Shown piece by piece: positions 8,273-41,200 of a stretch of DNA of 64,000 nt. Where the stretch lies: IMG/VR virus record IMGVR_UViG_2654587515_000001, positions 1 to 64,000 of that record, one strand, 5' to 3'. The notes under the pieces were generated by a model. That model saw nothing but the letters and a program-made list of their open reading frames with translations. It searched no databases and was not told where the DNA came from. The stretch is from a virus. Its lineage: Duplodnaviria > Caudoviricetes. Every line of letters begins with the position of its first letter. Within the stretch, counting starts at the first letter, position 1. Made by a program: the position numbers and the translations under genes.

Positions 8273-8899
8273 ATGAGCACACAGAAGAAGATATTTTGTG
8301 TCACGCTACTGGGAAGAGAGCAGGTCCAAGCGACCGCCGTGTTTGATAATGACCTGTTGGTGATCGCCAAGCTCGAAAAGATTTCCGGTGCGTTTGGCAC
8401 ATGGAAGCGAAAGCTCAAACGTGACCTGAAGAAAAAGCACGACGAAGGTTATCACATGGTCGTCGAAGAGCGCGGGGATGATTTCAGCGAGTACGCCCAC
8501 AAAGTGCTACTGGAAGAAGCGGACCCGACCGAAAAGCGCGGTTACATGAACATCGCCTTTGACCACTATTTTAACCTGCTTCGTCTTGGTGGTACTGCCG
8601 ATGGCAACCAGCAAGGTTGCATTGTGTTGAACAAGGGCTTGGAGCGCCACTGGATCCGTGACAATAGCGTTAACATCGTGCCGGATGACCGTGGCCGTTA
8701 CCGCTATGACATCGACCACTCCAAATTTACCGGTTATCAACGTGCCATTCTGTTGTGCGTGCTGACTGCGTGTGAGTTCAACCAAGTTAACCAACACTAT
8801 GTTGATACGTTCTTGGATGCCATCAACGTCGAAGACGAAGATCCCGCCTTTACAACGCTGCGCCGCATCACCATTGAGCGCGATATGGGGGATGCATGA
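8273..8899 (+). CDS. putative morphogenesis protein (position of P1 pmgM-like genes)
   Basis: First gene of a late operon; synteny with P1 26-25-7-24-6-5 block. Confidence 0.6.
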   Translation: MSTQKKIFCVTLLGREQVQATAVFDNDLLVIAKLEKISGAFGTWKRKLKRDLKKKHDEGYHMVVEERGDDFSEYAHKVLLEEADPTEKRGYMNIAFDHYFNLLRLGGTADGNQQGCIVLNKGLERHWIRDNSVNIVPDDRGRYRYDIDHSKFTGYQRAILLCVLTACEFNQVNQHYVDTFLDAINVEDEDPAFTTLRRITIERDMGDA

Positions 8900-9210
8900 C
8901 CCAGTTATCACGCCTAAGTCCGCTGAATATCCAAGATGAGCTGATCCGTGCTCGTTTTTACCGTGAGCTGCGCGACGGTTTGTTTGAGTGGGAAGAGTGG
9001 GAGGTCTCGATAGATGAGATCCGGATGCCCGAGCTTATTTCCTTGCGTTACTACGGGACGGATAGCCTCAAGAAAATCGTTTCGGTGTGTGCCGGCCTTG
9101 ATGATATGCGTGAATACCTCGCTGCCGGTAGCCTGATCCGTCTGCCGACAATTAAGTGGGTGAGAACGCGCATTCGCTATTACTGCCAGTTTGAGCAGGA
9201 GGGCGTATGA
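8896..9210 (+). CDS. baseplate protein, P1 gp26-like (tail X/LysM-like)
   Basis: MPELISLRYYGTDSL motif, size and synteny. Confidence 0.7.
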   Translation: MTQLSRLSPLNIQDELIRARFYRELRDGLFEWEEWEVSIDEIRMPELISLRYYGTDSLKKIVSVCAGLDDMREYLAAGSLIRLPTIKWVRTRIRYYCQFEQEGV

Positions 9211-10385
9211 AGCAGCCTGAAATGACCAAAAACGTCCGCAATCAGGACAAAGAGTTTAACGAACGTCGCCGTAACCAGAAGGCCGAGCGCCAGTATGCAC
9301 GCAGAACGCTGTCACCGGCAGCGATCCGTGAAGCAATCCGCACCGGTGAGCTGCCGTTGTATCACTCGGTGTTGCTGGGTTCCAAGAAAGGCGGCGATCC
9401 CTTCACTATTGACGACATGCGAGCCTTTGACAAGGCGCGTAAGTCGACCTCGAAGAAGTGGGGCCGGACTCGTGGCGCCCCGCTGGATCAGCTGATTGTT
9501 GCCTCTCGCAAGATAGACGTACAACGCGCCAATACAGAGATCCAAGTCGCACGGCTCTATAAGGTCCGTGGTGATTTGCTGCACTTCAATGTCACAGCCT
9601 CGGGCAAACATGGCGAGGGGAGCTATCAGGTCCGGATCCGTCTTGAGAACTGGATGGAAGAGTTAACTCAGACGCAGCGTAGTTGGGCAGCTGCCGTAAA
9701 GCGTATCTGTTTGGGCAATGTCTCCATTGACTGTCAGTGTGGCCGTTATCAGTTTTGGTATCGCTATGTCGCCACAGCCGGAAACTTTGCCATAGCGCCC
9801 TATGAGAAAGACTTTCCGAAGGTCCGAAACCCCAAACTGACCGGTTGTTGCTGCAAACACCAGCTCAAAGCGCTGGGGGCGTTGAAATCGCCTACGGTAC
9901 AGGCCCAGCTCGCCAAGCAGCTTGAAGCGCAGGCCGAGAAAGAAGGCTTTGCCGGTGATAACACCGATTCGTTCCTGACCAAAGAAGACCGCGAGCAGTT
10001 AGAGCGTGCCCGTCCTCGTGATGTGGACAAAGCCGCTGCTATGCAGGTGATCAACAAAATGAAGCAGGCCAAGCGCGTCTTTAAGCGTCAGGTCAAAGAT
10101 CCGAAGTACATCAAGAAGCTGGAAAAAGAGGTCGCAGAGCTGCGTAAACAACTTGGTAAGCAGCAATCCAAGGTGTCCACCAGCAAAACGAGAGCGAAGA
10201 AAGCCGTTGAGCAGCGCCAGAAGCAAGCTCAGGGCGCAAACCGTGACCAATTGAAGGCAATGCTCAGGTCTGAGCTGGACAGGGCCAAGATGTACGGCGC
10301 AGACCGTGACAGCGCGGTGAAAGTCTTCGCCAAAATGAACAAAGTCCCACTGGCTGACGCCCAGAAACTCGCTAAGGACCTGTAA
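9207..10385 (+). CDS. P1 gp25-like tail protein
   Basis: CQCGRYQFWYRY...CCCKH SWIM-like Cys motif, basic coiled-coil C-terminus; synteny. Confidence 0.7.
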   Translation: MKQPEMTKNVRNQDKEFNERRRNQKAERQYARRTLSPAAIREAIRTGELPLYHSVLLGSKKGGDPFTIDDMRAFDKARKSTSKKWGRTRGAPLDQLIVASRKIDVQRANTEIQVARLYKVRGDLLHFNVTASGKHGEGSYQVRIRLENWMEELTQTQRSWAAAVKRICLGNVSIDCQCGRYQFWYRYVATAGNFAIAPYEKDFPKVRNPKLTGCCCKHQLKALGALKSPTVQAQLAKQLEAQAEKEGFAGDNTDSFLTKEDREQLERARPRDVDKAAAMQVINKMKQAKRVFKRQVKDPKYIKKLEKEVAELRKQLGKQQSKVSTSKTRAKKAVEQRQKQAQGANRDQLKAMLRSELDRAKMYGADRDSAVKVFAKMNKVPLADAQKLAKDL

Positions 10386-34738: not shown

Positions 34739-36482
34739 AAAGAAGGCAGTCATTTCCGCCATGCAAGCGTCCAGTGAGATTGACGGCCTGAGTGCCGTCT
34801 TTCTTGCGGCCTTTGGGGAAGTGATCAGTGCCCAGACGCACCAAGCGAAGGCACTAAAACAAAAATTAATCGACACCGACGATGACTTAGAGAAATTCCA
34901 AGTGTGGCGGGACATTGTTTCGCTGCAAGTTGAATTGAGCCGGTATAACGACCACCGGTTGGAAACCATTTCAGAGCAGGGCGCCGACCTTAACAGCTTG
35001 CGACAAGCCTATATTGTCCCTGACGATCTTGATGAAAGACAGCGCCATTCTTGGCAACAAAGCGGCGAAAGCTTCTTGAAAGCGGTGATTTCTCCTGAGA
35101 AGGCGCAATCACTCAAAGATGTCGCGCACAGCATCAATGAGCTATTGCGCAGCAATCCTGACATCAATGAAAAAATTGAACGTCTCGAAAGTGAGTACAT
35201 TTCGCCACTGGCTGAAAAGGCCAGAGGGGTGATCGGTCAAATTACAGAAAAAGGGCAAAGCGAAGCCCTGATGTCCGAATTCGAAATGATCCGCTCAGCC
35301 ATTGAGTCTGCACACCGGACCCAAATTGATCCAGTTCTCATGGCGTCCAGTGGTGAGCTGGACCAAGCTGCCAAAGCGCAGCTGCAGTCACTGCAAGAGC
35401 AAAAGAAACGTATTGGCACTGAACTCATGTCCAATGTCTATGACGCGCTGATTGAGCGCTCAAGCGTTTCTCAGGAAGAAGCGGACCTATGGGCGTCAAA
35501 GCAGGAGATCAGCGCCTCAGCGGTGGCGAGAATGCGCAAATCGGGCTATCCCGAGTCTGAGGTGCGCCGTGATATGGCAACCTACTACCGATTGATCAGC
35601 GGACGGCTCGACAATGTTCGCCTTGTCACTACCGGCAGTAAGCGTGCCAGCGCAATTATTAATACGGCCACGATAGATATCGACCATGACTTTGACCGGC
35701 GCACGCTCTTTCATGAAATGAGCCATTTGCTCGAAGCGGATGAGTCCGTCAAGCTGGCAAACCAACGCTTTATCCAAAAACGTGCCTCGGGAACCCCACA
35801 GCGATTGAGCGAACTCACCAATAACCGCTCCTACAAAAGCGACGAGGTGGCGATCCCCGATAACTTCTACTCACCGTATGTCGGCAAGGTGTATGCGAGT
35901 GGGGCTACCGAAGTGGCGTCTATGGGTATTCAGCAATTTTCATCACTGGAAAGCATGTACGCCCTGTATGACAGCGACGAAGAAATGTTCACGCTTATGG
36001 TTGGCATGATGACAGGCGTTAACGACACCTTGATACAGCGCCAGAAAAAGCAGCTCGAAAGACAGGTCCATGGTGATGCTTTTGGTACTGCCGTTAAGAA
36101 GATTGTGGACAAGCTATCATGGCACGACGGCCATCGAATGAGTTCAGATGAAGCATGGCAGCAAGCACTCACTGGGAAAGGGAAAACCAATGCTCACAAT
36201 AAGAAGTGGGGATGGAAGCGCACCCTTGGAAGTTGCGAGCTGTTCCCTGCAAAAGCCCCGCGCCAGCGAAAGCAGATATATGGTGTAACAGTGGCTGGTG
36301 GTGACGACACACAACCGAAGCGGCACTTTTTCAGAGAGAAATTGCAGGCAGAGATTTTCGTGTATCTTCACGAGTTGTCTACCAGAGATATTAAGCCGTT
36401 ACCTCAAAGCGCCTTTTATCTTGCCTGCAATAATCAAGCACCAGATTGGTATCAAGTTGATACTGAATTACCACTTATCTAG
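34713..36482 (+). CDS. DdrB-position protein with zincin-like metallopeptidase motif
   Basis: LFHEMSHLLE (HExxH) with downstream TEVASMG; last gene of the dar operon. Confidence 0.6.
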   Translation: MSKKDSQPKKKAVISAMQASSEIDGLSAVFLAAFGEVISAQTHQAKALKQKLIDTDDDLEKFQVWRDIVSLQVELSRYNDHRLETISEQGADLNSLRQAYIVPDDLDERQRHSWQQSGESFLKAVISPEKAQSLKDVAHSINELLRSNPDINEKIERLESEYISPLAEKARGVIGQITEKGQSEALMSEFEMIRSAIESAHRTQIDPVLMASSGELDQAAKAQLQSLQEQKKRIGTELMSNVYDALIERSSVSQEEADLWASKQEISASAVARMRKSGYPESEVRRDMATYYRLISGRLDNVRLVTTGSKRASAIINTATIDIDHDFDRRTLFHEMSHLLEADESVKLANQRFIQKRASGTPQRLSELTNNRSYKSDEVAIPDNFYSPYVGKVYASGATEVASMGIQQFSSLESMYALYDSDEEMFTLMVGMMTGVNDTLIQRQKKQLERQVHGDAFGTAVKKIVDKLSWHDGHRMSSDEAWQQALTGKGKTNAHNKKWGWKRTLGSCELFPAKAPRQRKQIYGVTVAGGDDTQPKRHFFREKLQAEIFVYLHELSTRDIKPLPQSAFYLACNNQAPDWYQVDTELPLI

Positions 36483-36490
36483 TACCTATT

Positions 36491-36522
36491 CCGGCTCCTT
36501 GCCTGAGACTTGGAGCCGGTTT
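36491..36522. terminator. hairpin terminator between convergent genes
   Basis: CCGGCTCC-N13-GGAGCCGG followed by TTT. Confidence 0.55.
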
Positions 36523-36527
36523 AATGC

Positions 36528-37091
36528 TCACTCGCACCCAAGCACCCTCGACATGCCCTCAACTACGCTCAGCCGGATACGAGCCAATGAAAGCTCACGT
36601 TTAGCCTGCGCCAGTCCTTCCTCAGCCATTTCCTTGGCTGACGATGACACTTTGGCCTCACTGTGTAGCACGGGGAGGTCTTTCTCGGTGAAAAACTCCA
36701 ATACATGCGGCTGAAAAAGTTCAACCGGTGGCGTGGAGTAGCCCTGATGCACCGCTCGTTCGTAAATTCGCTCGAACTTGTCAGAGTTCGTGTGTTTACA
36801 GTAGGTCAGAAACCTATCTCGCATGGTCCGATCGGATACGTTAATCATGACGGCAGCATCATGAATGCGAGCGCCAAGAAAAATAGACAGGATCGCTTTT
36901 CTCGTCTCTTCACCGTAGGGGGAAAGCGTTCCTCCCTTCGCATGAAAAGTTGAGGGCGAGCCATTCTGAATCGCTTCATTCTCTGAAATCGTGACATCCG
37001 TTTCCCTGTGTCCTGCAGACTCAATAAAGCCCGTTCCAAAATCCGATTTCTCAATATGAGTTATCACAGTATGAAAGTAGTCACCTAGCAC
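36528..37091 (-). CDS. HTH-like protein preceded by a LexA box; paralogue of 53792..54211
   Basis: GTG start with AAGGAG RBS; ILSIFLGARIHDAAVMINVSDRTMRDRF helix-turn-helix-like segment. Confidence 0.75.
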   Translation of the reverse strand: MLGDYFHTVITHIEKSDFGTGFIESAGHRETDVTISENEAIQNGSPSTFHAKGGTLSPYGEETRKAILSIFLGARIHDAAVMINVSDRTMRDRFLTYCKHTNSDKFERIYERAVHQGYSTPPVELFQPHVLEFFTEKDLPVLHSEAKVSSSAKEMAEEGLAQAKRELSLARIRLSVVEGMSRVLGCE

Positions 37092-37144
37092 TACGTCTTC
37101 TCCTTTTTCTTATTATGGAAGTACAACCTTTGCACCAACATAGA

Positions 37145-37164
37145 TACTGTTTAAATATACAGTA
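37145..37164. promoter_or_regulatory. LexA (SOS) box
   Basis: TACTGTTTAAATATACAGTA fits TACTGT-N8-ACAGTA, 54 bp upstream of the 36528..37091 start. Confidence 0.88.
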
Positions 37165-37256
37165 TCTTACAGCTTTTTTATATAAATCAAAGACTCAATA
37201 AGGGCGAGTATGCATAAGAACCCGTATGTTGTATGTAGACAAAAACGTCCACAAAC

Positions 37257-38009
37257 CTAACGAATACGGAATGAGTCGGTCTTGGTGATTAGCTTGGTTG
37301 ATGAGCAAGTAGACAATAAAGTGCGCAGCTCAGACACGCTGTAGCCGGTCTTATCTCGTATGCGTGCCTTCATTGATCGAACGGTAGAAGGCGTTACGCC
37401 CAGTCTTTCTGCGGCCTCCTTGTCAGAGAGGCCCATGCGCTTACAAAAGATAAGGCGCGTTTCCGTCATGCTTAGGGGGTTTGCGAGATCGGCAAAATCG
37501 GGCACCTTGACGTGCCTAGATTCGGTAACGCGAAAGAAATCATTAATCAAAAATGTGGTGCCCATCAAATTTCCGTTGAGGTCCACTAACGGGTATTTTT
37601 GAGTTTCAATGGTATGCAATTTGACACTACTGCCGAAAAAGTAATCGCAATCTGCAAATACCATAGCTTGGCGCTCTTCCATAATGAGCTTATCTTGGAT
37701 GGCATATCCTTGAGCGACTTCATCACTGACACACGTCGGCATTTCTTCTAAGCGCTTACCATAAAAAGCGTAGCCGCAAGGCAGGTCTACCAGCTCGCGG
37801 TAATGGCAATTCATCACAAGGTACTCAGAATCTAGCCCTTTGATCCCCGCCGGCCCAGGATATCGCATCAACTCAGCCACAAGACAATCACAGAGCACGA
37901 ACTGGCCCGAGTGGATGCCGTGGTGAATCGACGTATCCTTTCGGGGATAGCATCGTCGACACAGGTGTTTGTTCTTCTCTAAGCATTCATTATAAGTATT
38001 TGCGGCCAT
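37257..38009 (-). CDS. VqmA-like PAS + LuxR-HTH transcription factor
   Basis: PAS region aligns by eye with V. cholerae VqmA (PGPAGIKGLDSEYLVMNCHYRELV vs PGYWGCKDLNSVFVYANQAYGELI; QKYPLVDLNGNLMGT vs TKTPWRDSQGKIQGT); C-terminal LSMTE...AERLGVTPSTVRSMKARIRDKTG LuxR HTH. Confidence 0.8.
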   Translation of the reverse strand: MAANTYNECLEKNKHLCRRCYPRKDTSIHHGIHSGQFVLCDCLVAELMRYPGPAGIKGLDSEYLVMNCHYRELVDLPCGYAFYGKRLEEMPTCVSDEVAQGYAIQDKLIMEERQAMVFADCDYFFGSSVKLHTIETQKYPLVDLNGNLMGTTFLINDFFRVTESRHVKVPDFADLANPLSMTETRLIFCKRMGLSDKEAAERLGVTPSTVRSMKARIRDKTGYSVSELRTLLSTCSSTKLITKTDSFRIR

Positions 38010-38205
38010 TCTACCCTCTAAAGTTTTACAAGACCGCCAACTGCAAAGCGTAATTTATATGTTAATTATTATATTAATTTATAGTGTAGGCCAATTTCGG
38101 ACAGTTTTGTGTTGATGCCCGTATTTATGTGCCTTGTTACCCTCCTGATGGACATTATTGTTTGCCCATCAAAAGGAGGATGGCGAACTTCCCGCCATAA
38201 ACTGA

Positions 38206-41200
38206 ATGTACAAATTCTTAATAACAACCCCTTTTAAATCAGAAGTTTCCATTCTGATTAACTCCGATTGGGACCAAAAATCCCCCGTCGAAATGGAAGG
38301 CTCAGACGATGACCAATTGATGATCAAAAATTTCATCCGTTTTCATGGTATGACCCCCGATGGACGTATTGCCCAGCTCCCTGAAATGACGCCAATGAGT
38401 GCTCATTACTCATTCACCACCAAAGCGGCGACAGAGCAAGGCTTCACCATTAAGTTTATTCAAGGTGAGCAAAAACCATACCCGCACCGTGATGTGGTGT
38501 TTGATAGCGCGGAAGATGACGAGCCATCGTTCACCACCAAACCGCAATCATTCAAACTTCAGGACCGATACCAATTCCAAGGTTTGCCGATTTCTATCGA
38601 AAACAAAGCAGGCACCAAGCGTGCCGGCGTGGACCCAGATGGTAGCGAATGGTCCGTCGCAATGCATTATGACTACGGATACATAAGATCGACCAAAGGC
38701 ACCGACCAAGAGGGTATTGATTGTTATATCGGGCCAAACCGTAAAGCCGATCACGTCTACATCGTCAAACAACACGCGATCGAAAAAGTGAAGCAGTGGC
38801 CATCGAAATACTGCCCACAGTGTAAAGAGCACGCTCAAGACTGCGCCTGCCCTGAATTCTTTGATGAAGACAAAGTAATGCTGGGCTTTGATAACAAAGA
38901 GCAGGCGAAAGCGGCTTACCTCAAGCAGTACGATTCCGATCTGTTCTTGGGGCCGATCTCTACGATGCGTATTGAAGACTTCAAGGAAGCGATCGCTGCG
39001 GCGGCTGGGGATGAGTTGGACTTGCCATTGCAGTTCGTGCATGACCATGCCGTTTTAGATAGCGCCACAGATGAGCAAATCCAAGCCCTGCAAAGCGCAA
39101 AAGATATCAATGAGTTAGAAGTTATTTTTAACCAGATATTCCAAGCGGCCAGTCATGATGGCGATCGTGAGTTTGGCTTGAAGGCCAGCGGCGTCAAAAC
39201 GCGAGAAACGATCAACAGCAAAGTAAAAGCGATCGTTGATCGAATAAAAGCGGCGAATTGGGACACAAGCAGCCTGACAGCAGAAGATTACGATCTGCTC
39301 GTGCAATATTCTGGCCGTGGCGGCTTGAGTGAAAACAGCCAGTATGAGTACTACACACCGACGTACATTGCCGAGGGATGCTGGGACTTGCTGGGGGCCA
39401 ATGGGTTTGATAACGGTAACGTCTTAGAGCCGTCTGCCGGTGCCGGTGTATTTAATGCCACCAAACATCAAGGCGTGAAGATGACCGCAACGGAAATCGA
39501 TCCGATCAGTTCTGCCGTCAACAAGATACTTCACCCAGAAGACAACGTATTTAACCAGTCATTTGAGAAAATGGCCGTTGAGTCACCAGATAACCACTTT
39601 GACTCGGTGATTGGTAATATCCCATTCGGCAGTGCCCGAGGCGCTTCTGCGCACGACGACCCCGATCATAAGAGTGAAAAGCTCATCGAGCGCTACTTCA
39701 TCAACCGTCTGATCGACAAAGTGAAGCCAAGCGGCCTGTTAGTGCTGGTGGTACCGGTCAATATTGTACGTGAACGTGGCAAAGTGTGGCAGAAATGGCG
39801 CGCGAAAATCAGCAAGAAAGCGGAATTCCTTGGTGCGCACAAGCTGCCAAGCAAGACGTTTGGCAAGCAAGGTACGGGTGTTGTTACCGACATCATTGTG
39901 CTGCGCAAGCACTCTAAATCAGCCGCTGAGAAAATTGCTCAACTTCCAATGGAGCAGCTGCAATCGTCCAACGTGCTTTGGGATACCTTTATTGAAGGCA
40001 AATGGTGGGAGCGCGACGGCAAGCCGTTTATTCACGGTAAGTTTGTCCCTAAAGACGCCAGCAAAGTCCGTGATGATGACAAAGTGATCCGTGATGCCAG
40101 CGTGACCGATGCAGCGCTCAAGCGCAAACTGGCGGCGAAATTCCACTCCCGTATCGACTGGGAAGCGCTCGATACCGCCGAGCCGGTGATTAAGAACTAT
40201 GTCGAAGGCGACCGTCGAATGATTGATGAGCGTATGCACGAGTTCACACGCGGCAACTGGGAACCGGTTGACACCCTGCATGGGACCACAACAGCCATTG
40301 ATGAGAAAAAGTATGGCGTTGCCTCTCTCGAAGCGCTGAAAGGGCTGCTTGAGAGTAATCACGGCCTGATGTCACTGTCGGTTAAACAGGCGTTTGCTGC
40401 GATGAAGGCATGGGGCCATTTATTTAGCAAACCGCAGAAGCAAGCCATTGAGTTTGCCATGACGCAACCCAGTGATGAGTATCGAGAGCAAATCTTCCGA
40501 GGTTCGCTGATTGGTGCTGATTTGGCGCGTTTCCAAAATGACACCAACCAAGGCAACTGGGACGCAACCGAGCAAATGCGACTGCAGGAGTTGGTGGCCA
40601 ATGAGATCAACAAATACGGCCATCCAAAACAAAACAAGGGGCTTATCCTCGCCGGTGAAAGCTCGCGCTATTTTGGCGTGTTCTCAAACGCGATGGATGA
40701 AAACGGTGAATACTCCACCTTGCTAACCGGTGATGTCAGCACGAAAGGACTGTCATTTGACGACACCAATCCTCACGCTATCGTTGAGCACCTATACCTG
40801 CGTGAAGGCATGATGCATATTACGTTGGAAGATGTGCAGCAGCTGTACAAAGGCAAGACGCCTATCCGCTCTTTGTCGGATCTGGCTGATGACAAAAACC
40901 TTGCTGTCCACCCTGACGGCCTGCTTATGCCAATGAGCCGTTTTTGCTCTGGGGATGTGTATCAGAAAGTGCTCACCCTTAGCCATGCACTCAATGTTGA
41001 AACCGATCCGAAACTCAAAGCGAAGTACCAACAACAGCTGGAAGAAATCGAACAGCGTCGCCACAAAACCGCGCCAGAAAACATTGCGTTCTCGATGCGC
41101 CACAAATGGATTGATCGCAAATACGTGCTGGAATTTATGCACGAAAAAGGCTACTCAAACCTTGATTACCTTGTCGAGAAAAAGCAGCTCGCTAAAGACG

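Follow-up and report, generated by a model that had tools for sequence, protein, structure and literature searches.

Can a Vibrio phage-plasmid listen in on a chemical signal through a receptor other than the known VqmA proteins, and to which of its genes would such a receptor be wired? This question is raised by a PAS-LuxR regulator gene in the first 64,000 nucleotides (nt) of the virus record IMGVR_UViG_2654587515_000001 (Duplodnaviria; Caudoviricetes), hereafter referred to as the window. The window represents a P1-like Vibrio phage-plasmid of the p0908/pVv01 family, and the 20 kb around the regulator gene share 97.7% DNA identity with plasmid p0908; mitomycin C induces pVv01, an active prophage from the same family (PMC4132613). 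So far, phage “eavesdropping” has been documented for VP882-like linear plasmid phages, which carry VqmAφ, and for a few phages with LuxR receptors of the acyl-homoserine lactone (AHL) type. The regulator discussed here is a VqmA by fold and architecture, not a VqmA orthologue by descent, and very probably constitutes a ligand-type transcription factor of the VqmA superfamily with a genuine Cys-rich extension. It belongs to a known kind of protein, the phage-encoded sensory PAS-LuxR regulators, to which its family adds a third, uncharacterised receptor clade. By analogy with VqmAφ, which activates qtip in phage VP882 as a non-SOS induction input (PMC10432266; PMC12802170), it might provide a second, LexA-independent input to an SOS-gated induction gene, acting as an activator that responds to a ligand and perhaps also to redox state or a metal; this is the favoured reading, with chances about even. 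The literature on VqmA in connection with phage-plasmids or P1-like elements, p0908 and pVv01 comprised the VP882 work and plasmid announcements only, with no paper on the regulator found.

The kinship with VqmA, proposed by eye in the initial annotation, is borne out at the level of architecture and fold, since three comparisons agree on VqmA as the closest solved relative. Searched with HMMER against all PDB sequences, the protein gave as its sole meaningful matches the VqmA of phage VP882 (7dwm, E 8.8e-6) and that of V. cholerae (6ugl, 6kju and 6ide, E 7e-5 to 8e-5). An AlphaFold2 (AF2) model built from a 27-sequence alignment, with a predicted local distance difference test (pLDDT) mean of 78 and values of 84–95 in the PAS domain, returned VqmA chains as the top eight Foldseek matches (E 1e-10 to 5e-9), with EL222 next in rank. 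Superposition of the model on VqmA chains by VIA-align gave Z values of 14.4–16.2 across 183–191 residues (14.4–14.5 for V. cholerae VqmA); sequence identity to VqmA is ~23–24%. In Pfam, the matches of both domains stay under their respective cut-offs, namely PAS_4 for the sensory part (E 2.3e-4; 21.8 bits, cut-off 23.1) and Sigma70_r4_2 (E 4e-5) and GerE (E 0.047) for the helix-turn-helix (HTH). The protein corresponds to PHROG 27555, listed as “transcriptional regulator”; public databases label it “PAS domain-containing protein” or “hypothetical protein”, and NCBIfam holds no model for it or for the 187-amino-acid (aa) protein encoded downstream.

Membership in VqmA, in contrast, did not hold. 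In a maximum-likelihood tree of 37 proteins, the regulator family forms its own clade (Shimodaira–Hasegawa-like approximate likelihood-ratio test, SH-aLRT, 100) on a stem of ~2 substitutions per site, outside both the VqmA clade, with its host-type and VP882-type members, and the other PAS-LuxR clade. In profile–profile alignment with hhalign, non-VqmA PAS-LuxR solos reach E 1.3e-26 and the VqmA clade E 8e-16, which places the family nearer to the former; it matches four of 14 VqmA-specific signature columns and three of the six columns specific to the other PAS-LuxR clade. These non-VqmA relatives we take to be PAS4-LuxR solos of the Photorhabdus type (Brameyer et al. 2014). An exhaustive HMMER search over 1.84 billion representatives yielded four matches below 1e-10, followed by PAS-LuxR proteins of 230–250 aa at 21–30% identity; tblastn of the regulator did not reach VP882 at E 0.01, and megablast against phages gave no match. 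By the HMMER search, the family is small.

The family is spread over two phage-plasmid lineages, and all its known hosts are Vibrio. P1-like circular relatives of the window element come from V. campbellii, V. parahaemolyticus, V. vulnificus (p48/10) and V. cholerae (pSA7G2), while the second lineage consists of the PE002A-type phage-plasmids of V. cyclitrophicus, which have a lambda/N15-like head, a P2-like tail and RepA/ParA. A scan of genome contigs revealed no relative, and a metagenome scan only more copies of these two lineages.

What sets the protein apart from VqmA at first sight is its N-terminus, with the motif C9-x7-C17-x2-C20...H29H30..H33...C40-x-C42. Among 10 homologues of 57–97% identity, C9, C17, C20, H29, C40 and C42 are nearly invariant, and C17, C20, H29, C40 and C42 are retained even in a 38%-identical fragment (P0013). 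The extension noted in the initial annotation is real, conserved and absent from VqmA; its length of about 45 aa was overestimated. In the HMMER alignments, residue 14 of V. cholerae VqmA corresponds to residue 48 of the regulator and residue 3 of the phage VqmA to residue 29, and therefore the true extra length is ~26–34 aa. Codons 1–47 have a ratio of nonsynonymous to synonymous changes (pN/pS) of 0.09–0.13 at a pS of 0.7–0.8, i.e., at near-saturated synonymous divergence, compared with 0.14–0.17 in the rest of the gene; judged by this substitution pattern, the N-terminal 47 codons are translated and under purifying selection. The start originally chosen, at position 38009, stands; the GAGGG located 4 nt upstream of its ATG is conserved in related plasmids. 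A short start at M48, giving 203–207 aa, was rejected on account of the low pN/pS of codons 1–47 and because residue 48 is Leu in the PE002A-type homologues, where such a start is untenable. Internal-start annotations of 203–207 aa, in which the conserved Cys-rich N-terminus is lost, were encountered in several public RefSeq and PHROG entries for homologues (L002, 12142-12753; L003, 3130-3753; PHROG 27555); the annotation is hereby corrected to a regulator of 250 aa. Upstream of the gene, the -35 of the putative regulator promoter is overlapped by TGTCC-N9-CTACA (38085-38103, minus strand), for which related plasmids show partial conservation (alignment A3); this sequence resembles the palindrome downstream of the gene, with a spacing one base shorter, and may be a weak autoregulatory site.

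The Cys4/His cap, as read from its conserved motif, could supply metal or redox control, and for an N-terminal Cys cluster joined to a ligand-type (CRP-type) regulator FNR is a precedent. It precedes a helix that aligns with the N-terminal dimer-crossover helix of VqmA, and the protein has 11 Cys residues altogether, with C68, C78 and C189 invariant. V. cholerae VqmA is itself redox-controlled via C48–C63 and C134–C134 disulfides (PMC7387800). Taken together with the purifying selection on four Cys and one His, these features would also accommodate a protein that primarily senses redox state, oxygen or a metal, in which the cap (Zn, Fe-S or disulfides) gates dimerisation and DNA binding, in the manner of FNR or of the VqmA disulfides, and the PAS domain is only a scaffold. 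This is quite unlikely, given that conservation is as strong at the pocket residues as at the cysteines, an argument for a functioning pocket; furthermore, the N-terminal 47–50 residues gave no match in Pfam or the ESM Atlas, including any known metal-binding family, and residues 1–25 are modelled at low confidence (pLDDT <65). A redox or metal role and a role as ligand receptor are not exclusive.

Which ligand the pocket might hold has to be judged against DPO (3,5-dimethylpyrazin-2-ol), the signal of VqmA. In VqmA, DPO stacks on F67 and F99 and is hydrogen-bonded by K101; binding is lost in the F67A and K101R variants, and the affinity of F99A is ~10-fold lower (Huang et al., bioRxiv 10.1101/2019.12.19.881847). 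The HMMER alignment agrees with the initial by-eye alignment for the pocket positions named there, mapping Y36 to Y70, F67 to Y102, Q70 to Q105, D71 to D106, D85 to D120, F99 to T136 and K101 to K138; further positions are K23 to K57, N33 to N67, H87 to D122, H97 to H132 and F116 to F153. Across the family, the mapped residues show no or almost no variation, and seven of the 10 residues mutated by Huang et al. are identical in the regulator, with Tyr at F67. K23, N33, D71, K101 and F116, however, are common to the whole superfamily and therefore do not point to DPO, whereas Q70 and D85 recur in the VqmA clade alone. F99 to Thr, H87 to Asp and W94 to Leu are fixed in the regulator family. The pocket thus looks VqmA-like and in use, yet altered, and DPO appears possible as a ligand; that the ligand is DPO itself is nevertheless rather doubtful.

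On the strongest form of this idea, the protein would be a true receptor of the host autoinducer DPO; it would be a phage VqmA of second, separate origin, setting off lysis when cell density is high. The essential hydrogen-bond donor K101, an aromatic residue at F67, and Y36, D71, D85, H97 and F116 are kept, Q70 together with D85 is otherwise a mark of the VqmA clade, two VqmA-clade proteins (P0052 and P0061) likewise have Thr at the F99 position, and F99A is only ~10-fold weaker. The known hosts of the regulator-bearing elements are exclusively Vibrio, species that probably make DPO. On the other side stand the separate long-stem clade that is not nested in VqmA, the profile nearer to non-VqmA PAS-LuxR proteins, the three fixed replacements, and the superfamily-wide occurrence of most kept residues, by which DPO is not singled out. 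On balance, we regard a DPO receptor proper as possible but on the doubtful side.

The second part of the question concerns the target. An imperfect palindrome, TGTRGAC-N6-RNCTACA, occupies an identical position in the window and in 13 of 13 related loci of both phage-plasmid lineages, despite flanking DNA that is not alignable between them. Within each of three whole elements, as within the window, it occurs once at ≤2 mismatches; extra copies in the window were dismissed as chance, with six matches at three mismatches against 4.4 expected. The predicted recognition helix of the regulator, S208-T-V-R-x-x-K-x-R-x-R-D-K-T, is invariant in the homologue alignment, and its identity across both lineages is as expected if both bind the same palindrome. 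Aligned to the DNA-binding domain of VqmA, K185 becomes S208, K193 R216 and R195 R218. The VqmA-type operators GG-N6-CC (PvqmR) and GG-N9-CC (Pqtip) have no match in the window at ≤3 mismatches, and a VqmA-type operator was rejected on this ground, with the DNA contact K185 being Ser and the adjacent conserved palindrome differing in sequence.

Beyond the palindrome, at a distance of 21 nt, follows the -10-like hexamer CATACT; PE002A-type loci have a like geometry, with 22 nt and CATAAT. From this spacing, an activator-dependent promoter with a transcription start site (TSS) near 37200 can be proposed, relative to which the palindrome centre would lie at about -43.5, the usual place of a LuxR-type class II activator.

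The same palindrome could also fold as an RNA hairpin (-10.9 kcal/mol, z -3.2 in the window; -5.8, z -2.1 in PE002A), and this allows for a different interpretation of the locus. The regulator and the 187-aa gene (36528-38009, minus strand) are the sole minus-strand unit within 1-48583, among ~48 kb of plus-strand structural and dar genes, and have the darB operon on one side and, on the other, the 589-aa gene that closes the hdf-darA-ddrA operon; the opposite strand and the position between two operons suggest an inserted cassette. Such a counter-oriented, self-contained cassette with its own promoter could be a moron, encoding a lysogeny-phase accessory regulator for host genes or plasmid maintenance with no role in induction, the palindrome being a 3' RNA hairpin or terminator and the LexA box nearby incidental. 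The z of about -3 for the hairpin in P1-like copies would fit, a stabilising hairpin needs no U-tract, and VP882 VqmA is known to act also on the host promoter PvqmR (PMC8284805). We consider this reading unlikely: the arm sequences (TGTAGAC, CTACATAC) are conserved between the lineages beyond mere pairing, the hairpin is weak in PE002A, a -10-like hexamer recurs at a fixed distance, the window has no VqmA-type operator, and the tie to a single SOS box is found in two unrelated backbones.

That SOS box is the sole canonical LexA site in the window and is conserved in all related loci. In three whole elements it is the only full match with the CTGT-N8-ACAG core kept; pSA7G2 has an extra match with three mismatches lacking the core. 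It lies 91 bp downstream of the palindrome in the P1-like elements and ~622 bp in the PE002A type. In one P1-like relative (L009, 5001-5753 in IMGVR_UViG_2667527945_000002), palindrome and SOS box are intact beside a frameshifted regulator copy, whose frame is lost near residue 124 and back near residue 188; natural decay and sequencing error are both possible causes. A sigma-70-like promoter with its -10 overlapping the box can be read from the sequence, and was not called by the consensus scan.

Downstream of the LexA box in the P1-like elements lies the gene of the 187-aa orphan protein, whose homologues are mainly found on ~79–84 kb contigs, matching the size of P1-like Vibrio elements. 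Its AF2 model has a helical core (residues 55–140, pLDDT >90) and a long C-terminal helix, compatible with a putative HTH followed by a C-terminal coiled coil; the HTH is to be taken as a lead, not a finding. A wide VIA search gave weak LuxR/GerE-type HTH matches only (Z 5.2–5.8), there was no match in Pfam or by tblastn against phages, Atlas matches did not exceed 0.80, and at E ≤ 0.001 Foldseek had no match. The order beyond the palindrome is different in the PE002A type: first an XRE repressor gene (109 aa, convergent and unannotated), then the single LexA box, a 76-aa orphan open reading frame (ORF) and repA; in L001 the XRE gene occupies 8886-9215 (minus strand) and the 76-aa ORF 9366-9639 (plus strand), with the same arrangement in L010, L011, L021 and L022. 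The XRE gene is divergent from the LexA box and the 76-aa ORF, and the latter runs in the same direction as the PAS-LuxR gene, the XRE gene alone being counter-oriented to it. The XRE repressor (HTH_31/HTH_3) has no peptidase domain, which fits control by a LexA-gated antirepressor, and the whole looks like the layout of a LexA-gated antirepressor switch.

From the recurrence, in two unrelated backbones, of a sensor gene, a unique candidate operator with class II geometry and a sole LexA-gated orphan gene, we infer a LexA-independent route to the effector; that the regulator and the 187-aa gene make up a minus-strand unit of their own speaks for it as well. A regulator dimer would bind TGTRGAC-N6-GTCTACA near -43.5 of a weak promoter and act as a class II activator. 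In the P1-like element, the resulting transcript would run into the LexA-gated 187-aa gene; in the PE002A lineage, it would run antisense through the short XRE repressor gene toward the LexA-gated 76-aa ORF. The effector would then start prophage induction, either as an antirepressor or as a lytic activator, so that the element would be inducible by DNA damage via LexA or by the signal read by the receptor. This signal might be a small heteroaromatic ligand, DPO or a relative of it, held by Lys138 and Tyr102, with the Cys-rich cap, placed at the dimer interface, as a possible further layer of redox or metal control.

Several points weigh against this scheme. By the alignment, every member of the family has Thr in place of F99, one of the two DPO-stacking residues, and Asp in place of H87. 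The -10-like CATACT was missed by the consensus scan and lacks an evident -35; with its z of -3.2 in the window, the palindrome might instead act as a 3' hairpin of an RNA; and a LexA box at +36 to +55 of the proposed transcript would be unusual. The 187-aa protein is without recognisable antirepressor homology and its HTH assignment is based on Z values below 6, a c1-type (main) repressor was not located in the P1-like element, and the frameshifted natural copy suggests that the regulator gene can be dispensable. A bolder version of the same scheme is improbable. Here, the locus would be a portable “three-input” module with an FNR-like Cys4 cap (Zn or Fe-S), in which a pyrazine-type signal of cell density, redox state or oxygen, and DNA damage are merged at one induction promoter, gene, operator and promoter having moved together between unrelated Vibrio phage-plasmid lineages.

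Table 1. Features of the regulator locus in window coordinates.
Feature	Coordinates	Strand	Basis
PAS-LuxR regulator gene (P0001)	37257..38009, stop codon included	-	intact ORF, 250-aa translation
N-terminal extension, codons 1-47, C17-x2-C20...H29...C40-x-C42 plus C9, H30, H33	37869..38009	-	homologue conservation, pN/pS
PAS ligand-binding domain, ~residues 48-160, VqmA-like pocket	37530..37868	-	Pfam PAS_4, AF2 model pLDDT 84-95
C-terminal LuxR/sigma-70-region-4-type HTH, ~residues 176-235	37305..37484	-	Pfam, VqmA alignment
Regulator ribosome-binding site (RBS) GAGGG	38014-38018	-	conserved in related plasmids
Regulator promoter-like site TTGGCC-18-AATAAT	38065..38094	-	consensus-scan match only; conserved in related plasmids
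20-bp imperfect palindrome TGTGGAC-N6-GTCTACA, candidate operator	37234..37253	.	begins 4 nt past regulator stop codon; conserved
-10-like hexamer CATACT	37207..37212	-	21 nt past palindrome; read from sequence
Sigma-70-like promoter TTGATT-N18-GATACT, -10 overlapping LexA box	37161..37190	-	read from sequence; conserved block
Canonical LexA (SOS) box TACTGT-N8-ACAGTA	37145..37164	.	sole window match, 0.07 expected by chance
187-aa orphan gene, GTG start, RBS AAAGGAG, candidate SOS-gated induction effector	36528..37091	-	PHROG 25672, function unassigned there

Neighbouring genes in the window, in line with a P1-like element, encode a DarB-like protein (2349 aa), an Ulx-like protein, portal, Pro, a PmgS-like protein and a Cre-type recombinase. 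The leader of the DarB-like gene (38120-38205, plus strand) is structured, with a minimum free energy of -27.9 kcal/mol (z -3.7), and conserved in five plasmids. In it, CCCUCCU (38141-38147) pairs with the Shine-Dalgarno sequence AAGGAGG (38173-38179); a six-codon mini-ORF, MANFPP (38180-38200), is itself a hairpin and ends 5 nt 5' of the darB ATG (38206). Through this leader, the antirestriction gene of 2349 aa may be controlled or coupled at the level of translation. Rfam gave no RNA family in 36300-38500.

With one candidate operator, one LexA box and one orphan effector candidate, the wiring of the locus is testable, and it could show how temperate phages join a chemical or redox cue and the SOS response at one promoter.

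Among known systems, V. cholerae VqmA (6ugl, 6ide, 6kju) has the same domain order and fold as the regulator, and its activity is likewise cysteine- and redox-sensitive. It differs in being chromosomal and controlling the small RNA VqmR, in lacking an N-terminal Cys cluster, its cysteines C22, C48, C63 and C134 being at other positions, in recognising GG-N6-CC, and in its intact F67/F99 stacking pair. The PAS4-LuxR solos of Enterobacterales and the plasmid-borne PAS-LuxR proteins of Yersinia, Arsenophonus and Pantoea share the combination of PAS_4 and LuxR HTH in ~230–250 aa. Despite giving the top profile–profile score and the closest non-family HMMER matches, the enterobacterial solos have His at the Q70 position and Glu at the D85 position, where the regulator family keeps Gln and Asp, and they have no Cys cap and end in a C-terminal “IP..F” tail. 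To our knowledge, none of the PAS4-LuxR solos is phage-borne or linked to a LexA box.

In the transcription factor–small ORF (TF-smORF) modules of linear plasmid-like phages, including the XRE-LuxR-smORF arrangement of the Aeromonas phages Apop and ARM81ld, a sensory TF adjoins a small orphan gene in an accessory region (Silpe et al. 2023, PMC10432266). The PE002A-type loci contain the same three components, an XRE protein, a LuxR-type TF and a 76-aa smORF. However, the smORF of those modules is counter-oriented to the TF and its product inactivates the phage repressor independently of SOS, whereas the candidate effector here is co-oriented with the TF and carries a LexA box, and the LuxR-type TF has a PAS domain instead of an AHL-binding domain.

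LexA-controlled antirepressor switches are known from coliphage 186 (Tum), N15 (AntC) and the Gifsy phages. Such a switch pairs an SOS box over the promoter of a small gene with a repressor that cannot be cleaved. Here, a single SOS box likewise overlaps the putative promoter of a small orphan gene, and in the PE002A type a peptidase-free short repressor is adjacent. The locus described here differs from them by a sensory PAS-LuxR gene with its own candidate operator just upstream; no sequence similarity of the 187-aa and 76-aa proteins to known antirepressors was found.

The closest counterpart is the VqmAφ-Qtip pair of VP882 and VP882-like linear plasmid phages (Silpe and Bassler 2019; Santoriello and Bassler 2025, PMC12802170), which is also based on a PAS plus LuxR-HTH receptor of the same fold on a phage-plasmid. 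There, too, the receptor has next to it one phage target promoter, presumed to drive an effector of induction, as a non-SOS input alongside SOS. In VP882, vqmAφ and qtip lie between telN and repA, and the PE002A-type regulator, between tail genes and repA, is likewise near replication genes. Compared with VqmAφ, the regulator adds the Cys4/His cap, has Thr for F99 and Asp for H87, and belongs to a separate clade; its candidate operator is TGTRGAC-N6-GTCTACA, not GG-N9-CC, and the window backbone is a circular P1-like element. The effector candidate is an HTH-like protein of 187 aa for which no similarity to Qtip was detected; its gene is co-oriented with and downstream of the receptor gene and has a LexA box, whereas qtip is counter-oriented. 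Because this candidate effector gene carries the only canonical LexA box of the element, both inputs, receptor and LexA, would here meet at one gene.

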